The notes beneath the pieces are model-generated. The model was given only the letters and a program-made list of their open reading frames with translations, did no database searches and had not been told where the DNA came from. From a phage, in the sequence record PZ452578.1: DNA of 64,000 nt. One strand, given 5' to 3'. Positions 4,527-50,705 of this stretch are shown here, one piece after another. A program made the position numbers and the translations under genes. Positions within the stretch are counted from its first letter, which is position 1. Every line of letters begins with the position of its first letter.

Positions 4527-4951
4527 TGCTTCTGATCCCTGAAACTCATGAATTAGTTCTCGAGAATGTCGAAGCACTTATTCCTGAAGCACAGGGTCGC
4601 TTTGACGAATTGTCTTCTGCTTTAAATAAAGACGATATAAATACAATTGTCGAGAATATGCTTGATGATGAAACTGATTTAGCGGTTGCATTAGCTTCTA
4701 TTAATGAAAATATGCCGTTAAATGAATTCATCGTTAAACATGTTTCCGCCCGTGGTGAAATTACTCGCACTAAAGACCGCAAAACGCGTGAACGTAATGC
4801 ATTTCAAACCACTGGGCTGTCTAAAGCAAAACGTAGACAAATTGCTCGTAAAGCTACCAAAACGAAGATTGCCAATCCAGCAGGTCAATCTCGTGCTCAG
4901 CGTAAGCGTAAAAAAGCTCTTAAACGCCGTAAAGCATTAGGATTAAGCTAA
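4526..4951 (+). CDS. 68: Prohead core protein gp68
   Basis: 141 aa, basic C-terminus, synteny 67-68-21. Confidence 0.85.
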
Positions 4952-5589
4952 TGAATGAACCCCAATTACTAATTGAAACTTGGGGTCAACCTGGCGAAAT
5001 TATTGATGGCGTGCCAATGCTTGAATCTCATGATGGAAAAGACTTAGGTTTAAAACCGGGTTTATACATCGAAGGAATATTCATGCAAGCGGAAGTCGTC
5101 AATAGAAATAAACGTCTTTATCCAAAACGTATATTAGAAAAAGCGGTAAAAGACTATATTAATGAGCAAGTTTTAACTAAACAAGCTCTCGGAGAATTAA
5201 ATCATCCTCCACGCGCTAATGTTGACCCGATGCAAGCCGCTATCATTATAGAAGATATGTGGTGGAAAGGAAATGACGTATACGGACGAGCTCGTGTTAT
5301 TGAAGGTGACCATGGTCCTGGAGATAAATTAGCAGCTAATATTCGTGCCGGATGGATTCCAGGAGTTTCTTCTCGTGGATTAGGTTCATTGACTGACACA
5401 AATAAAGGTTATCGTATCGTAAACGAAGGATTCAAATTAACTGTAGGTGTTGATGCAGTATGGGGTCCAAGTGCTCCAGATGCATGGGTAACTCCTAAGG
5501 AAATTACCGAATCACAGACGGCGGAAGCCGATACAAGTGCCGATGACGCCTATATGGCTCTCGCAGAGGCCATGAAAAAAGCGTTATAA
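4951..5589 (+). CDS. 21: Prohead core scaffold protein and protease gp21
   Basis: 212 aa, T4 gp21 length; position upstream of 22 and 23. Confidence 0.9.
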   Translation: MNEPQLLIETWGQPGEIIDGVPMLESHDGKDLGLKPGLYIEGIFMQAEVVNRNKRLYPKRILEKAVKDYINEQVLTKQALGELNHPPRANVDPMQAAIIIEDMWWKGNDVYGRARVIEGDHGPGDKLAANIRAGWIPGVSSRGLGSLTDTNKGYRIVNEGFKLTVGVDAVWGPSAPDAWVTPKEITESQTAEADTSADDAYMALAEAMKKAL

Positions 5590-27878: not shown

Positions 27879-28062
27879 AATCTAGTGGTAAGAGAGTACG
27901 GTATATTTCAAACTTTGGACCTTTTTCATAGGCATCAAATGTTTCTGTGAATTTATTATAAGCATATGCATCTACAAATTCGAGAATGACTTGTGATACA
28001 GAAGTAGAAACATCTCCACCTTCTTTTTGAGCAATGACAATTGTTTCTAAGTAAGCTTTCAT
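27874..28062 (-). CDS. Hypothetical protein
   Basis: 62 aa ORF whose start overlaps the gene 30 stop. Confidence 0.65.
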   Translation of the reverse strand: MKAYLETIVIAQKEGGDVSTSVSQVILEFVDAYAYNKFTETFDAYEKGPKFEIYRTLLPLDY

Positions 28063-29522
28063 AAACCAGTTACCTCATGAAAATCACCAAATACATCCTC
28101 GAATGTATTAGCTTTAGTTTTATCTTCACGTAAACGAATCGCAATCGGAAGAAATAATTTAACGTAATCAGTGCGGCCATCAGATTTTAACCAACCGTTG
28201 CATTCGCACTCTAGAATTTTTCCAATATAATAATTTTGGTTTTCCATAATGCGAGTACGGTCAAGTTCATGCGATTTTACACCGGCTTTATCTTTTAAGC
28301 CTGAACCAGCATTTACCTTAATTTTTCCACACTCTGATTCAAGAATAAATCCACCCGCTTTAGTAGGGTCTTTACGGTGAGGATAAATTCCTACAATTTT
28401 TAAATCAACATCAATTACTTCTTTAAATTTATAGAGATTTTTTGAACGAGCATTTTCCCACAATCCATCGGTATTTTTGAGAATAATACCTTCAAGACCT
28501 TGGTCAATATACTTTTTATAAATTACCTTAGCTTCATCTAGGTTATTTACTACCTGGTTTTCAATTAAAATTACTTTATCATAACCTGATGTCATTTGTT
28601 CTAGTTTAGAAAAACGTACATCATATTTCAAACGAAATGCAGGAAGACCGTATATTTCTACCAACGGGACATAATCCCAGACCTGAAACTTCATGCATTG
28701 AGCTTCTTTTTCAGAAATGGTTCCCTTTAAAGATTTATTGGCGATGCCATTAGATGCAGTACGTGATTCAGCTACTTCGGCGAATTCTTTAGCTTTACTA
28801 ATTTCAGGATAAGCATCAAAAAGAAAATCTAGTCCTTCTGGTTCCTTTTCAACTTGCTCATGGTATACCAATTCGCCATCAATTAACACACCTTCTGGAT
28901 GAATCTGGCGGGCTTCAGCGGTCATTTTAATTAACTCTTCCTTAAGAAGATCTAATCCTAGATATTCATTACCAGCTCGTGATAAAAGACGAACATCATC
29001 TAATTCATCACCTCTAACTTCAGCAAAACACCGAGCTCCATCAGCTTTTAACTGGGCAAAGGCTGGAAATTTGATATTCTTATTAATGCCTTTTTCATCA
29101 TAAGAACTTGCAAGCATTTGAGGTTGTTCAGGAATTAAACCTGGCCAAACTTTGTTCGCAATAGATACTGAAGCACCGCATTCAAGGTCTCGCATCATCA
29201 CCCGACGCAAAACTTCAACATCATCTTTTTTACCGTCAGTAATATATCCAGTTAATTCCTCAATTGCCGCATTTCCAGTCAATTTCCGAGTAGCTAACGT
29301 GAATTCAATGAAGTCGAGCATATCGGTAAGAGTCAACATTCCAAAACTCTGGGTAGCAATACCCGGTTTAGGCCATTTCTTGATATAATACTGTAACCCA
29401 CGAGAATAAGTCAGACGATATACTCGTTTAAGCAATTCATTATCTTTATTCTTTTCAAGAATTGCTTGCTTCTGCTTAGTTGAACCAATAGATGCTATTT
29501 CGTTCAGAATTTTAAGAATCAT
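28059..29522 (-). CDS. 30: ATP-dependent DNA ligase gp30
   Basis: 487 aa, T4 DNA ligase length; active-site KADGAR motif present. Confidence 0.95.
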   Translation of the reverse strand: MILKILNEIASIGSTKQKQAILEKNKDNELLKRVYRLTYSRGLQYYIKKWPKPGIATQSFGMLTLTDMLDFIEFTLATRKLTGNAAIEELTGYITDGKKDDVEVLRRVMMRDLECGASVSIANKVWPGLIPEQPQMLASSYDEKGINKNIKFPAFAQLKADGARCFAEVRGDELDDVRLLSRAGNEYLGLDLLKEELIKMTAEARQIHPEGVLIDGELVYHEQVEKEPEGLDFLFDAYPEISKAKEFAEVAESRTASNGIANKSLKGTISEKEAQCMKFQVWDYVPLVEIYGLPAFRLKYDVRFSKLEQMTSGYDKVILIENQVVNNLDEAKVIYKKYIDQGLEGIILKNTDGLWENARSKNLYKFKEVIDVDLKIVGIYPHRKDPTKAGGFILESECGKIKVNAGSGLKDKAGVKSHELDRTRIMENQNYYIGKILECECNGWLKSDGRTDYVKLFLPIAIRLREDKTKANTFEDVFGDFHEVTGL

Positions 29523-29788
29523 TGTTCATCCTTTAGAGTTTGGTTTACAGCTCTATTATAAATCAATTCATCATTAAGCTCAGTCAAAGACCTGTGGTAC
29601 GTGGTTCTAACTTTATTTCCTTGCATCCAGTGCTTGACGTAAATGAAACCTTGCTCTACACATTTTTTAAAAATTCGTTCGTCTTTTTGAGCTCGGAATT
29701 CTGGATTGCATCTAAAAAATTGATTTACGTGACCGTAATCACGTGTAGTATTACCTTCATTTTCATAAATAGTATGAACAACAAACAT
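29519..29788 (-). CDS. Hypothetical protein (T4 30.1 position)
   Basis: 89 aa ORF overlapping the gene 30 start. Confidence 0.7.
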   Translation of the reverse strand: MFVVHTIYENEGNTTRDYGHVNQFFRCNPEFRAQKDERIFKKCVEQGFIYVKHWMQGNKVRTTYHRSLTELNDELIYNRAVNQTLKDEQ

Positions 29789-30627
29789 TAGAATGCTCCT
29801 TGGAAAATATTATCACCACTAGTAGGTCTATTATACAAATACTCTATGCCACCAGGTTTAATATAGTTCCATGTCTGAAACGGATGTGTCTGATATGGAT
29901 GATATAGATGATTATAAGGATTAAATCCAGGAGTTCTCCAGGTAGTGTTCCAAGGAAAAGAATCGTTTTTGATCATCTTCTCAATTACATCTTTTATAAC
30001 TTTTTCACTATCAAAACTTTCTTTATTTTCCTTCGATGGAAAAAGCTTATTCTCTACATCATTCCATGTATAAACTCGCTGTGCAGTTTTTGGAATACTG
30101 TCACGCTCCCCTCGAGCCATCCAATAAACAGGAACATTTAATATTTCACTCGCGTGATCGCAGTGGTGAGCGAGATCGTCAATATAACAAATTACGTTAT
30201 ATTTCTCTTTTGCCTTTTTGAACAACTCTTCTTTTGAAGAATCATGACCACACATCAATACTTCTGAGAAGGCACCAGGAAAAAGAGCATTCAAATTAAA
30301 TTGACGATTCAGCAGAGCGTCAATAGAATCACCCAATGCTGTAAGAGCTACAAAATTATAATCTTCTTTTAATTTGTTAATTACACACAGGGCATCTTTA
30401 TATGGAGACAAGTAACGAATAAAATCTGAACGATTGTATTTTTCAATTAACTTGACGCCAAGTTCTTCATCACAATTAAAGAGTTTACCAGGAGAAATAA
30501 ATTTCTCATCTTGGATCATTTTTAAAATATGTTCTAACGGAAGATTATATTTCTGAGCAAAATAAGGAAGGCCTGATTGCCAGCTTAAACATACTCCATC
30601 AATATCAGTTAAAATAGTAGGCTTCAT
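29788..30627 (-). CDS. Putative HAD-superfamily hydrolase (T4 30.2 position)
   Basis: 279 aa; N-terminal ILTDIDGV fits HAD motif I (DxDx[TV]); later CYIDD could be the acidic motif IV. Confidence 0.65.
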   Translation of the reverse strand: MKPTILTDIDGVCLSWQSGLPYFAQKYNLPLEHILKMIQDEKFISPGKLFNCDEELGVKLIEKYNRSDFIRYLSPYKDALCVINKLKEDYNFVALTALGDSIDALLNRQFNLNALFPGAFSEVLMCGHDSSKEELFKKAKEKYNVICYIDDLAHHCDHASEILNVPVYWMARGERDSIPKTAQRVYTWNDVENKLFPSKENKESFDSEKVIKDVIEKMIKNDSFPWNTTWRTPGFNPYNHLYHPYQTHPFQTWNYIKPGGIEYLYNRPTSGDNIFQGAF

Positions 30628-31088
30628 AGAGAGTCTCTTAATAGGTTTAACACATCAATAAATTCAGCTTCGGTTAGTATTGTATCATCTTTTGTTAGAC
30701 CACTAGCCATGCTGTGCTTCAAAACTTTTCCTTTCGAGGCTTGTAATGCATCACGAAAGCCCTTGTTTTGGATCGCTGCTTCAAAATATGCATTTGTGTA
30801 TAATTCTTTCCACGCCGGGGAGTATCTTGAAAACGGAACTCCAAGCCAGAAGAGGGTCCCACGGTCCTGAGCTCTAGCATAAGACCTTCCAGCTTGTTGA
30901 GCGGCAAGCCCGGATAACCCAAATATACGACGTTGTTGTTCAACATTTTTCACCTTACATCCTTGGAGGAATCCTTCGAGACCTCCAAATTGAATGCCAT
31001 CCATAACGAAAGGCCATTGGGCGAAATTACTTAATGCACATGATGGCCACCTAAAATTGCTTCTAATCTCTAACTCAGACATTTTCAA
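30624..31088 (-). CDS. 30.3: NADAR-like (YbiA/DUF1768-like) protein, 30.3
   Basis: 154 aa; LSNFAQWPFVMDGIQF...EGFLQGCKV resembles the remembered YbiA core FSNFAAWP...DG...EHYFQAQKF; recalled from memory. Confidence 0.55.
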   Translation of the reverse strand: MKMSELEIRSNFRWPSCALSNFAQWPFVMDGIQFGGLEGFLQGCKVKNVEQQRRIFGLSGLAAQQAGRSYARAQDRGTLFWLGVPFSRYSPAWKELYTNAYFEAAIQNKGFRDALQASKGKVLKHSMASGLTKDDTILTEAEFIDVLNLLRDSL

Positions 31089-32235: not shown

Positions 32236-32568
32236 TTATTTTACTACTTTCCAATGCTGCATGTCAAGTTTACCAACTTTTTTCATCTTCTCAATTAAGC
32301 GTTCTGCACGTTGACGAGCTGTAACATAATGCCATTCGCCTAATTCATTTTGTTCAATTTTTCCAACGATTACTGTATTCAATTCATAAATCCAACCAGT
32401 AAAGAAATTATGAACTTGAATTGTAAAGGTGAAATCTGTTCCCATACCTTCTGTTGTTTCTACTTCAATAATATCACCTTCAACTGCCATTAAGAACCAC
32501 ATAGTTTCATTATATTTACCATTGAAGCATTTAGTTTTAACTGCAGCGTTCAGATTAATCGTTTTCAT
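32236..32568 (-). CDS. Hypothetical protein
   Basis: 110 aa ORF with a GGAGAA RBS, downstream of an early promoter. Confidence 0.7.
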   Translation of the reverse strand: MKTINLNAAVKTKCFNGKYNETMWFLMAVEGDIIEVETTEGMGTDFTFTIQVHNFFTGWIYELNTVIVGKIEQNELGEWHYVTARQRAERLIEKMKKVGKLDMQHWKVVK

Positions 32569-32624: not shown

Positions 32625-32654
32625 CAACTTTATGCAATCTTTGGAAAATAAAAA

Positions 32655-32678
32655 AGGACTCCCGAAGGAGTCCTCAAC
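32655..32678 (-). terminator. Rho-independent terminator after 30.9
   Basis: AGGACTCC-TTCG-GGAGTCCT hairpin followed by TTTTTATTTT on the minus strand. Confidence 0.8.
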
Positions 32679-36558: not shown

Positions 36559-37759
<1,201 letters not shown>

Positions 37760-49716: not shown

Positions 49717-50370
49717 TTAATACTTACAAGATTTCACAGTTTCAATGAAAACACTTTTAGCTTTCTGTGAATCAATATTTAAAATTTTTCTATAAGCTTT
49801 TAACTTTATAGAATAATTATTCCAAACTAAATTATCAGTCTGTTCATCATGTTTATCAATTATATTTAAAAACGAATCAAGTAAGATAAATGTCTCAAAC
49901 GAAATTATATTCGATTGAAGCAGTTTAAAAATATAACTTGACTGAACCTTTGGATTATATTCAAAGATTTCTTTAAAAGCAGAAACTTCAACTTTCTTAC
50001 TAAAATAATAAATGTTGCGAATATCTTCTTCAAACTTAAATTTAATTTGCTTTAAGCGTCCGATATATTCACGATAAAACACAAGTGCATCAGCGTCAGA
50101 GATGTCACCAATCCAAGCATCTTGGTTAGCAACAAGATTGCTTATAAAGATTAAAGCAAGTTCCTTTAATTTATATTTTTCTGATAACTTCTGGAAAAAA
50201 TACTTATCCCTTCGCTTTTGATAAGCGGCATCAGACACCCGCATGCACCAATTATACTTAATTACATCATACTTTCCATTCATATGTTGTTTTATCATTA
50301 AGTATAATTTATAAACTGATTTACCATCAATGTATCTTTCACCACCAGCAGGCATGCGGAGTTTAATCAT
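49717..50370 (-). CDS. 59: Helicase loader gp59
   Basis: 217 aa, T4 gp59 length; position between 33 and 32. Confidence 0.88.
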   Translation of the reverse strand: MIKLRMPAGGERYIDGKSVYKLYLMIKQHMNGKYDVIKYNWCMRVSDAAYQKRRDKYFFQKLSEKYKLKELALIFISNLVANQDAWIGDISDADALVFYREYIGRLKQIKFKFEEDIRNIYYFSKKVEVSAFKEIFEYNPKVQSSYIFKLLQSNIISFETFILLDSFLNIIDKHDEQTDNLVWNNYSIKLKAYRKILNIDSQKAKSVFIETVKSCKY

Positions 50371-50705
50371 AGCAGAAAATCTAATGTATTAGTTTTTTCA
50401 CAACGAACAACAGAAGGACGTAAAAGATTTTCGTCAATGGCTTCTGACTGAATTTTTTCAATTATACCCGAAGGAATAAATTTAGCAAATTGAGTTTCAG
50501 GAATAGAGTTTTCTTCCAAGAATGCTGTCGTAGCTTCAAGATAACTCATTCCAAACTCTTCTACCATTTTTTCAATAATAAATCCATTTTCTTGACGATC
50601 AAGAAGCTTTGCTATTTCATCCTTTTCTTTCTTAATTGAAAGTTCTTTTTCTGAAAGACCGGTCTCATCGACCGGACGAATATCATTTAGAGAAAACTGT
50701 GTCAT
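50367..50705 (-). CDS. 33: Late transcription co-activator gp33
   Basis: ORF track gives 115 aa; the ATG at 50705 (MTQFSLND) gives 112 aa, the T4 gp33 length. Confidence 0.85.
   Translation of the reverse strand: MTQFSLNDIRPVDETGLSEKELSIKKEKDEIAKLLDRQENGFIIEKMVEEFGMSYLEATTAFLEENSIPETQFAKFIPSGIIEKIQSEAIDENLLRPSVVRCEKTNTLDFLL

Follow-up and report, generated by a model that had tools for sequence, protein, structure and literature searches.

The gene 30.2 locus

The stretch of phage DNA considered here (64,000 nucleotides of sequence record PZ452578.1, referred to as the window) comes from a Tequatrovirus, a T4-like phage, and carries on its minus strand, at 29788..30627, an open reading frame (ORF) that runs from ATG to TAA and encodes a protein of 279 amino acids. 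This ORF is the gene labelled 30.2 in phages RB3 and T4 (99% nucleotide identity to RB3). When its 840 nucleotides were used as a query, matches were obtained in 520 phage records, with 99% identity to RB3, RB5, and related phages. The product, gp30.2, is predicted to be a phosphatase of the HAD superfamily that resembles the NT5C (5'(3')-deoxyribonucleotidase) family and is extended by a C-terminal tail. Its N-terminus reads MKPTILTDIDGV, in which ILTDIDGV occupies residues 5-12; an initial annotation, made from the sequence alone, had both the coordinates of the gene and this motif right.

The gene 30.2 protein belongs to PHROG 420, a family of "unknown function" (E 2e-92), and is listed as such in nearly all deposited genomes. 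In a genome-wide CRISPRi-ART screen of 2025, T4 30.2 appears as "hypothetical protein, unknown function, phrog_420" (PMC11879866 supplement). A handful of database records already use the terms "HAD-like", "phosphatase", or "5'(3')-deoxyribonucleotidase", and a literature search on gp30.2 found no paper mentioning the protein.

The order of the genes on the minus strand is 30.3-30.2-30.1-30. Upstream lies gene 30.3, or adfN (30624..31088, minus strand), which has a TTG start and encodes a NADAR DNA ADP-ribosylglycohydrolase of 154 amino acids (Pfam Phage_30_3, E 2e-70). The downstream neighbour, gene 30.1 (29519..29788, minus strand), specifies a DUF3045 protein of 89 amino acids (Pfam PF11243, E 2.9e-64) and is followed by gene 30 (28059..29522, minus strand) for the ATP-dependent DNA ligase of 487 amino acids (Pfam DNA_ligase_A_M, E 1e-32). 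Start and stop codons overlap at each of the three junctions, as ATGA, TAATG, and ATGA: the start of 30.2 shares the four nucleotides 30624..30627 with the stop of 30.3 (ATGA), and the start of 30.1 overlaps the stop of 30.2 (TAATG), as can be read directly in the sequence. These overlaps give the four genes the appearance of a co-transcribed, translationally coupled unit. The location of 30.2 "between DNA ligase and the NADAR-like gene", as first described, thus holds on one side only: 30.3 abuts 30.2, but 30.1 separates it from the ligase gene.

HAD motifs and predicted fold

A search of 5.8 billion proteins with the gene 30.2 protein yielded 99 homolog clusters, 39 of which were aligned (alignment A1). 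An exhaustive search with a 30.2 profile retrieved 1346 representative proteins at E ≤ 1e-3, mostly of 190-215 residues. A second alignment (A2) comprises 45 more distant homologs with 22-43% identity to the window protein.

All four HAD motifs could be placed in gp30.2. Motif I (TILTDIDGV, residues 4-12; 30592..30618, minus strand) contains the predicted nucleophile, D8, and the predicted general acid/base, D10. Motif II (FVALTA, residues 92-97; 30337..30354, minus strand) lies at the end of the strand formed by residues 91-96 and provides T96, while the lysine of motif III, K132 (30232..30234, minus strand), directly precedes helix 133-142. Motif IV (CYIDDL, residues 147-152; 30172..30189, minus strand), at the end of strand 145-150, supplies D150 and D151 as predicted Mg2+ ligands. 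Mapping motifs II-IV had been proposed as a check in the initial annotation; T96, K132, and D150-D151 are present in this order and at canonical positions in the structural model described below.

Conservation of these residues is high. Invariant in A1 are D8, D10, G11, W16, S18, K132, and R172, with T96, D150, and D151 conserved in at least 90% of the sequences; the invariant residues of A2 are D8, D10, W16, R108, N111, K132, and D151, and residue 96 is T or S throughout. The two aspartates on which the assignment of ILTDIDGV to HAD motif I was originally based, and whose conservation in orthologs had been named as a check, are therefore invariant in both alignments. Motif I aligns with that of the mouse deoxyribonucleotidase cdN (2jao), and motif IV with the "IDD" of 3bwv, SSM1/Sdt1, and PseT. 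A search of all window ORFs of at least 100 amino acids for DxD[GSNA][TVC] preceded by three hydrophobic residues gave two instances, one in gp30.2 and one in the HAD phosphatase domain of PseT. On these sequence grounds, a chance match of ILTDIDGV is considered excluded.

With the 39 sequences of A1 as input, AlphaFold2 gave a model with a mean predicted local distance difference test score (pLDDT) of 84.5. Values are mostly above 90 over residues 1-195, and the means per 10-residue block of residues 1-190 range from 92 to 98. The model consists of strands 4-8, 91-96, 120-125, 145-150, and 167-169 and, after a cap, of helices 77-86, 102-115, 133-142, and 153-163. Of the predicted catalytic residues, D8 and D10 follow strand 1, T96 follows strand 2, D150 and D151 follow strand 4, and K132 stands immediately ahead of helix 133-142. 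The cap domain (residues 16-65; 30433..30582, minus strand) follows right after motif I, is of the C1 type, and includes the invariant W16; its four helices (16-26, 32-40, 46-49, and 54-65), with pLDDT values above 93, fill the interval from strand 1 to the first helix of the core. Judged by this model, gp30.2 almost certainly has the Rossmann-like core of HAD enzymes, interrupted by a C1 cap just behind motif I, and this is the outcome that a structure prediction should give if the HAD assignment is right.

Comparison of the model with the PDB by Foldseek gave 111 matches at E ≤ 1e-3, and all 50 of the matches listed are HAD-fold proteins with a probability of 1.00. The top match is 2jao, the mouse cytosolic 5'(3')-deoxyribonucleotidase (E 3e-8, probability 1.0). 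The highest target-normalised TM-scores among the matches listed (0.64-0.69) were obtained for the deoxyribonucleotidases 2jao, 2i7d, 4yih, 1q92, and 3bwv, a group that includes human cdN and mdN and, with 3bwv, a deoxyribonucleotidase-like (NT5C-like) protein of S. epidermidis. In a viral structure library, many of the proteins matched by gp30.2 are labelled 5' nucleotidase.

Relationship to the NT5C family

The window protein on its own finds no match among PDB sequences and none to the NT5C model PF06941 at E ≤ 1 (cut-off 24.8 bits). As searches of curated libraries with this protein are nearly silent (see below), the case for a HAD enzyme rests on its homologs and on the structure. The A1 profile has 2jao as its best match among PDB sequences (E 0.13). 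With the A2 profile, 3bwv comes first (E 3.7e-5), and the next matches are to SSM1/Sdt1 and XMP phosphatase, which are nucleotide phosphatases. Scanned singly, 15 of the 45 members of A2 match Pfam NT5C and 19 match the HAD "Hydrolase" model PF00702 (E ≤ 0.1). One relative of 30.2 (P0194) scores 27.9 bits against PF00702, for which the cut-off is 26.4, and four others (P0201, P0206, P0238, and P0170) reach 33.8-37.3 bits with NT5C, well above its cut-off and with near-full coverage of the model. The latter four are retrieved by the 30.2 profile at roughly E 1e-20 to 1e-26. Since the window protein stays below the NT5C threshold while its distant relatives exceed it, the link is a transitive one, and by the Pfam rule gp30.2 belongs to a sister branch rather than to the family itself. 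The same holds for the profile search suggested at the outset: the protein alone remains below the curated thresholds, but the A2 profile finds 3bwv, and individual relatives reach the NT5C and HAD models. We conclude that gp30.2 is a divergent, essentially phage-restricted sister branch of the NT5C family.

In the HMMER alignment of the A1 profile with 2jao, "DGVlvkWqSgL" is paired with "DGVLADFESGL", and residues W16, F43, and Y64 stand opposite F, F, and Y. The aligned aromatic residues of cdN and mdN presumably contact the base of the nucleotide or stack on it.

Distribution and fusion proteins

Cellular homologs of 30.2 were considered and dismissed. When 185,579 genomes, one per species, were scanned, 10 loci with a 30.2 homolog were detected, all of them in metagenome-assembled genomes, and each of the four contigs checked carries phage genes (for tail fibre, clamp loader, PhoH, or gp47-like exonuclease). 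The 30.2 family is essentially viral. A tblastn search that started from a distant member yielded matches in 1440 phage records. Outside the T4 group, in a Casjensviridae phage of Rhodobacter, the 30.2 relative adjoins a gene for a MazG pyrophosphohydrolase and has a nucleoside hydrolase gene nearby.

Some relatives carry additional domains, most of which have no family match. One protein of 591 residues (P0148) combines a Pol-beta-like nucleotidyltransferase region (residues 11-263) with a 30.2-type HAD domain (residues 386-586). The nucleotidyltransferase region contains a GDLDIIIE motif and matches phrog_24943, "DNA polymerase", with an E-value of 2e-34; a search of PDB sequences with P0148 gave no match. 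This fusion, a single case, is suggestive of nucleotide chemistry. In another protein (P0015; three member sequences, on a metagenomic contig of 1378 nucleotides), the counterpart of 29519..30627 in the window, the 30.2 HAD core and 30.1/DUF3045 (PF11243) are joined in a single ORF of 302 amino acids. It is either a natural fusion that hints at joint action of 30.2 and 30.1 or an assembly frameshift. In the CRISPRi-ART screen, 30.1 was scored "Semi-Fit" and 30.2 "Not Fit" (PMC11879866 supplement).

The C-terminal tail

The tail of gp30.2 (residues 196-279; 29791..30042, minus strand) comprises an amphipathic helix (207-220) and a stretch rich in P, W, Y, and N that is predicted to be disordered, with mean AlphaFold2 pLDDT values of 43-56 per 10-residue block from about residue 221 onward. 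The tails of 30.2 homologs are hypervariable and can be sorted into several classes without relation to one another. Many homologs lack a tail, as in RB69-like, Acinetobacter, and Aeromonas phages, where the protein stops after about 200 amino acids. A short motif, GGIEYLYNRPT (residues 259-269; 29821..29853, minus strand), with the class A consensus G-[IT]-E-Y-[LWY]-x-x-[QR]-P-T, is present in 18 of the 99 homolog clusters at 14-18 residues from the C-terminus. It is common to T4-like phages and Klebsiella-type T4-like phages, the proteins of which are 49% identical overall, and occurs once in the six-frame translation of the window. Within the T-even phages the motif drifts, for example to "GIGYLY" or "DAGYFNRL". 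Two close T-even relatives (L004 and L005), with an overall identity of 93%, have a tail that is rewritten in its middle part, GIEYLY included ("...KPGDAGYFNRLTSG..."), and keep the terminal SGDNIFQGAF. This rewriting suggests local indels or frameshift-and-return events.

A motif that binds the sliding clamp gp45, LDFLF, is known from a loop of the ligase and from gp43 (PMC6212786), and the gene 30 ligase of the window carries such a gp45-binding loop, GLDFLFD, at about residues 226-240. Binding of the clamp by the tail of gp30.2, as might be supposed from GIEYLY and LDFLF, was examined using a position-specific scoring matrix made from 39 distinct ligase-loop motifs of related loci, with which 62 tails were scored against 500 shuffles each. 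The idea was rejected as unsupported: the T4-type tail gave p=0.83, and the C-terminal motifs "GIEYLMN" and "DLRAYYG" gave 0.19 and 0.31. The drift of the motif within the T-even phages also speaks against it. The few significant scores are located in the core-adjacent helix, away from the conserved C-terminal motif.

The ligase loop itself is kept in very distant T4-like phages in the form x-L-x-x-[LMF]-[FLM]-[GDE]. Variants include GLDFLFD, DLFGMFE, PLDDIFG, GIEWMMD, and SLAGFMG, among others, and the loop around them can be as short as about 20 or as long as about 80 residues. Elsewhere in the window, an ORF of 112 amino acids (50367..50705, minus strand) ends in ...KTNTLDFLL, which matches the clamp-binding C-terminus expected of the late-transcription co-activator gp33.

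Other features of the locus

The Pfam Phage_30_3 match spans residues 13-152 of the 154-residue 30.3/adfN ORF. In the RefSeq record of RB3, 30.3 has only 381 nucleotides (126 amino acids; 4624..5004 of the locus), whereas 459 nucleotides are listed for T4; the N-terminus looks truncated in the RB3 annotation. An ORF of 75 amino acids in another frame within 30.3 (30719..30946, minus strand) is the gene labelled 30.3' in T4. Just upstream of the run of genes from 30.7 to 30 is a sigma-70-like promoter sequence, TTGACA and TAAAAT separated by 18 nucleotides (32238..32267, minus strand; 11 of 12 matches), and a terminator-type stem-loop with a T-run lies about 400 nucleotides upstream of this promoter-like site (32654..32675, minus strand). 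In a scan of the 27.5-33.5 kb region, the numbers of promoters and terminators were not above those in shuffled sequence.

A capped nucleotide phosphatase as the most probable function

The data are best explained if gp30.2 is a soluble, Mg2+-dependent HAD phosphomonoesterase that trims part of the nucleotide pool, with a (deoxy)nucleoside monophosphate as its likely substrate, a description that in its entirety is considered probable. Phosphatase chemistry, including the presumed catalytic activity and Mg2+ dependence, is the firmer part and very likely correct, while a nucleotide as the substrate is favoured at somewhat better than even chances. In such an enzyme, Asp8 would attack the phosphate of the substrate to form an aspartyl-phosphate intermediate, and Asp10 would protonate the leaving alcohol and then activate a water molecule. 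Thr96 and Lys132 would hold the phosphate, and Asp150 and Asp151 the Mg2+ ion. The four-helix cap (residues 16-65) may close over the active site and select a small substrate, most likely a nucleoside or deoxynucleoside monophosphate. The invariant Trp16 would be placed like the aromatic residue that presumably stacks on the base in the cellular enzymes. Produced together with AdfN, the 30.1 protein, and the ligase from what would be a common transcript, gp30.2 might trim part of the nucleotide pool in early or middle infection. The C-terminal tail would be an accessory module, probably for the binding of a partner and dispensable for catalysis.

HAD enzymes that act on the ends of macromolecules, such as those of the PNKP type, are not known to carry a cap, and capped enzymes of the C1 type act on small substrates. 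The four-helix cap after motif I therefore favours a small molecule, probably a nucleotide, over DNA ends. The initial annotation had left a choice between a nucleotide and a DNA-end phosphatase. Its first option is now preferred on the basis of the C1 cap, the deoxyribonucleotidases among the best matches, and the relatives that pass the NT5C threshold, and its second option is disfavoured.

Several observations weigh against a nucleotide phosphatase. In a Pfam scan, the window protein had no match above the cut-off (the best, to HAD_PNKP, reached 12.4 bits with a cut-off of 27.6), and a scan of NCBIfam gave nothing significant. At the level of the fold, Foldseek scores are as good for haloacid dehalogenases and epoxysuccinate hydrolases as for nucleotidases, so that the grounds for the proposed substrate class are the DxD signature, the cap, and the bridge to NT5C. 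T4 recycles the deoxynucleoside monophosphates (dNMPs) of its host into its own DNA, and a broad dNMPase would thus seem counter-productive; a narrow or unusual substrate is implied. Finally, knock-down of 30.2 had no effect on fitness in the CRISPRi-ART screen, with a score of -0.34 (PMC11879866 supplement).

Alternative explanations

Among the alternatives, a role of gp30.2 in counter-defence survives best, although it is regarded as doubtful. The protein might clear a phosphorylated product of AdfN or deplete a defence precursor or signal, as T5 Dmp does against Kongming. AdfN is the NADAR enzyme that strips the ADP-ribose added by DarT1 from DNA and thereby acts as an anti-DarT factor (PMC11825919). 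It was fully functional only in T-even infection, and the authors suggested that an additional T-even protein is possibly needed (PMC11825919). With its start codon overlapping the adfN stop codon, 30.2 could be the obvious positional candidate for this protein. The hypervariable tail and the dispensability of the gene on the laboratory host are also typical of arms-race genes. A precedent for such a role comes from phage T5, the Dmp of which is a classical phage dNMP phosphatase (deoxynucleoside 5'-monophosphatase) that is proven to counteract Kongming and is also an escape locus for Clover. Its sequence carries HAD-type motifs (VMIWDLDGT as motif I ... MIDD), but homology to gp30.2 beyond the superfamily was rejected, as hhalign of A2 with Dmp gave a probability of 2.8% and covered only the region of motifs III-IV. 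An obligatory pairing of 30.2 with the NADAR gene was rejected as well: 30.2 is far more widespread than adfN, as only 35 of 79 loci with 30.2 contain 30.3 and the two are directly adjacent in only 22. Gene 30.2 must therefore have a function that is independent of AdfN. Phage RB69 has a 30.2 homolog and is rescued by ectopic AdfN alone, an observation that neither supports nor excludes a helper role. All in all, an arms-race phosphatase of the NT5C type, as opposed to a housekeeping nucleotidase, that removes a defence precursor or signal, or the AdfN product, and docks to a phage or host partner through the short, lineage-specific motifs of its tail is an unlikely but not unreasonable candidate.

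Still less probable is an action of gp30.2 on DNA or RNA 3'-ends, by which it would make ligatable 3'-OH groups for the co-transcribed ligase in the manner of a free-standing PNKP phosphatase domain. Of the 79 related viral loci, 66 have a ligase gene downstream on the same strand at a distance of no more than 1.7 kb, sometimes with a gap of only 2 nucleotides, and the ligases of linked loci have identities as low as 36%. These 66 loci, however, form one syntenic phage lineage and are thus not independent evidence. Distant 30.2-family members also occur in T4-like aquatic phages where a ligase gene is not present within about 5 kb, and other replication genes adjoin them. There are weak matches to HAD_PNKP, both of the window protein (PF25109; E 0.18, residues 132-158 only) and of 2 of the 45 relatives (best 0.003), and a weak match of gp30.2 to the polynucleotide kinase family PHROG 415 (E 0.005), and a few phage polynucleotide kinases/phosphatases are found among the lower Foldseek matches in the viral library. 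No kinase domain was found in gp30.2 by Pfam and PHROG scans. PNKP-type phosphatases have an uncapped site that accommodates polymer ends, whereas motifs I and II of gp30.2 are 88 residues apart and include the cap between them. Moreover, an end-healing enzyme, PseT, is already encoded in the window (36559..37464). Paralogy of gp30.2 with the phosphatase domain of PseT was rejected, the similarity being at the level of motifs only (hhalign probability 12.6%, BLASTP E 0.92).

The argument from a "DNA end-processing neighbourhood", put forward when the gene was first annotated, is accordingly a weak one. Linkage to the ligase gene is indeed conserved, but within one lineage only, and the NADAR protein is an anti-DarT enzyme that is missing from more than half of the loci. 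We read the linkage to the ligase gene as membership of a module for DNA and nucleotide metabolism and not as a sign of action on DNA ends.

It is very improbable that gp30.2 is a HAD-fold protein with other chemistry (a dehalogenase, epoxide hydrolase, or phosphomutase) or a dead scaffold acting via its tail. In favour of such a reading, the top Foldseek matches include L-2-haloacid dehalogenases and cis-epoxysuccinate hydrolases with E-values equal to those of nucleotidases, and the lack of a fitness phenotype upon knock-down would fit. However, the DxD motif with its second Asp and the acidic DD of motif IV mark Mg2+-dependent phosphoryl transfer and not dehalogenation. Conservation of the catalytic residues in 45 sequences with identities as low as 22% speaks against a dead protein, and the dispensable part is the tail, not the core.

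Significance

T4 is a reference phage, and its gene 30.2 can now be given a confident fold, predicted catalytic residues, and a nearest enzyme family. By extension, PHROG 420 becomes a large clade of NT5C-like predicted phosphatases with about 1300 clusters at 50% identity, almost all from phages. Phage nucleotidases decide the outcome of nucleotide-sensing defences, as in the case of T5 Dmp with Kongming and Clover, which makes the unrelated 30.2 lineage, conserved in T4-like phages, a reasonable candidate for similar biology. The result is an improvement of the annotation, and a modest one unless the counter-defence reading is true.

Comparison with known nucleotidases and phosphatases

The combination of a core and a cap is general among nucleotidases (PMC3946280). 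The enzymes most similar to gp30.2 are the mammalian deoxyribonucleotidases cdN (cytosolic) and mdN (mitochondrial) (2jao, 2i7d, and 1q92; PF06941) together with 3bwv of S. epidermidis, which likewise have a HAD core with a four-helix C1 cap. In cdN, as in gp30.2, a DxDGV motif is followed by an aromatic residue at position D+8: "DGVLADFESGL" in cdN corresponds to "DGVCLSWQSGL" in gp30.2, with W16 in the place of Phe. cdN, mdN, and 3bwv also share the T/S, K, and DD motifs with gp30.2. In contrast, their identity to gp30.2 is only 14-20%, and R108 and N111 are family-specific invariants of gp30.2, for which 3bwv has K and W. A disordered tail of about 85 residues is present in gp30.2 and absent from the cellular cdN and mdN enzymes, and the gp30.2 family, unlike these enzymes, is essentially confined to phages.

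The phosphatase domain of PseT is a member of the same superfamily encoded by the same phage, in which motif I has the form DxDGT and motif IV the form IDD. PseT acts in the healing of nucleic-acid ends before ligation; its phosphatase domain is uncapped and fused to a kinase, whereas gp30.2 has a cap and lacks a kinase domain.

Dmp of T5 resembles gp30.2 in being encoded by a phage and in having HAD-type motifs in its sequence. Dmp is an early protein with the nucleotide pool as its target, and both its removal of dNMPs and the evasion of Kongming have been proven. T5 discards the nucleotides of its host while T4 recycles them, which makes a broad role like that of Dmp unlikely in T4. By analogy, T5 Dmp nevertheless shows, as a functional precedent, what a phage nucleotidase such as the one predicted here may be able to do.

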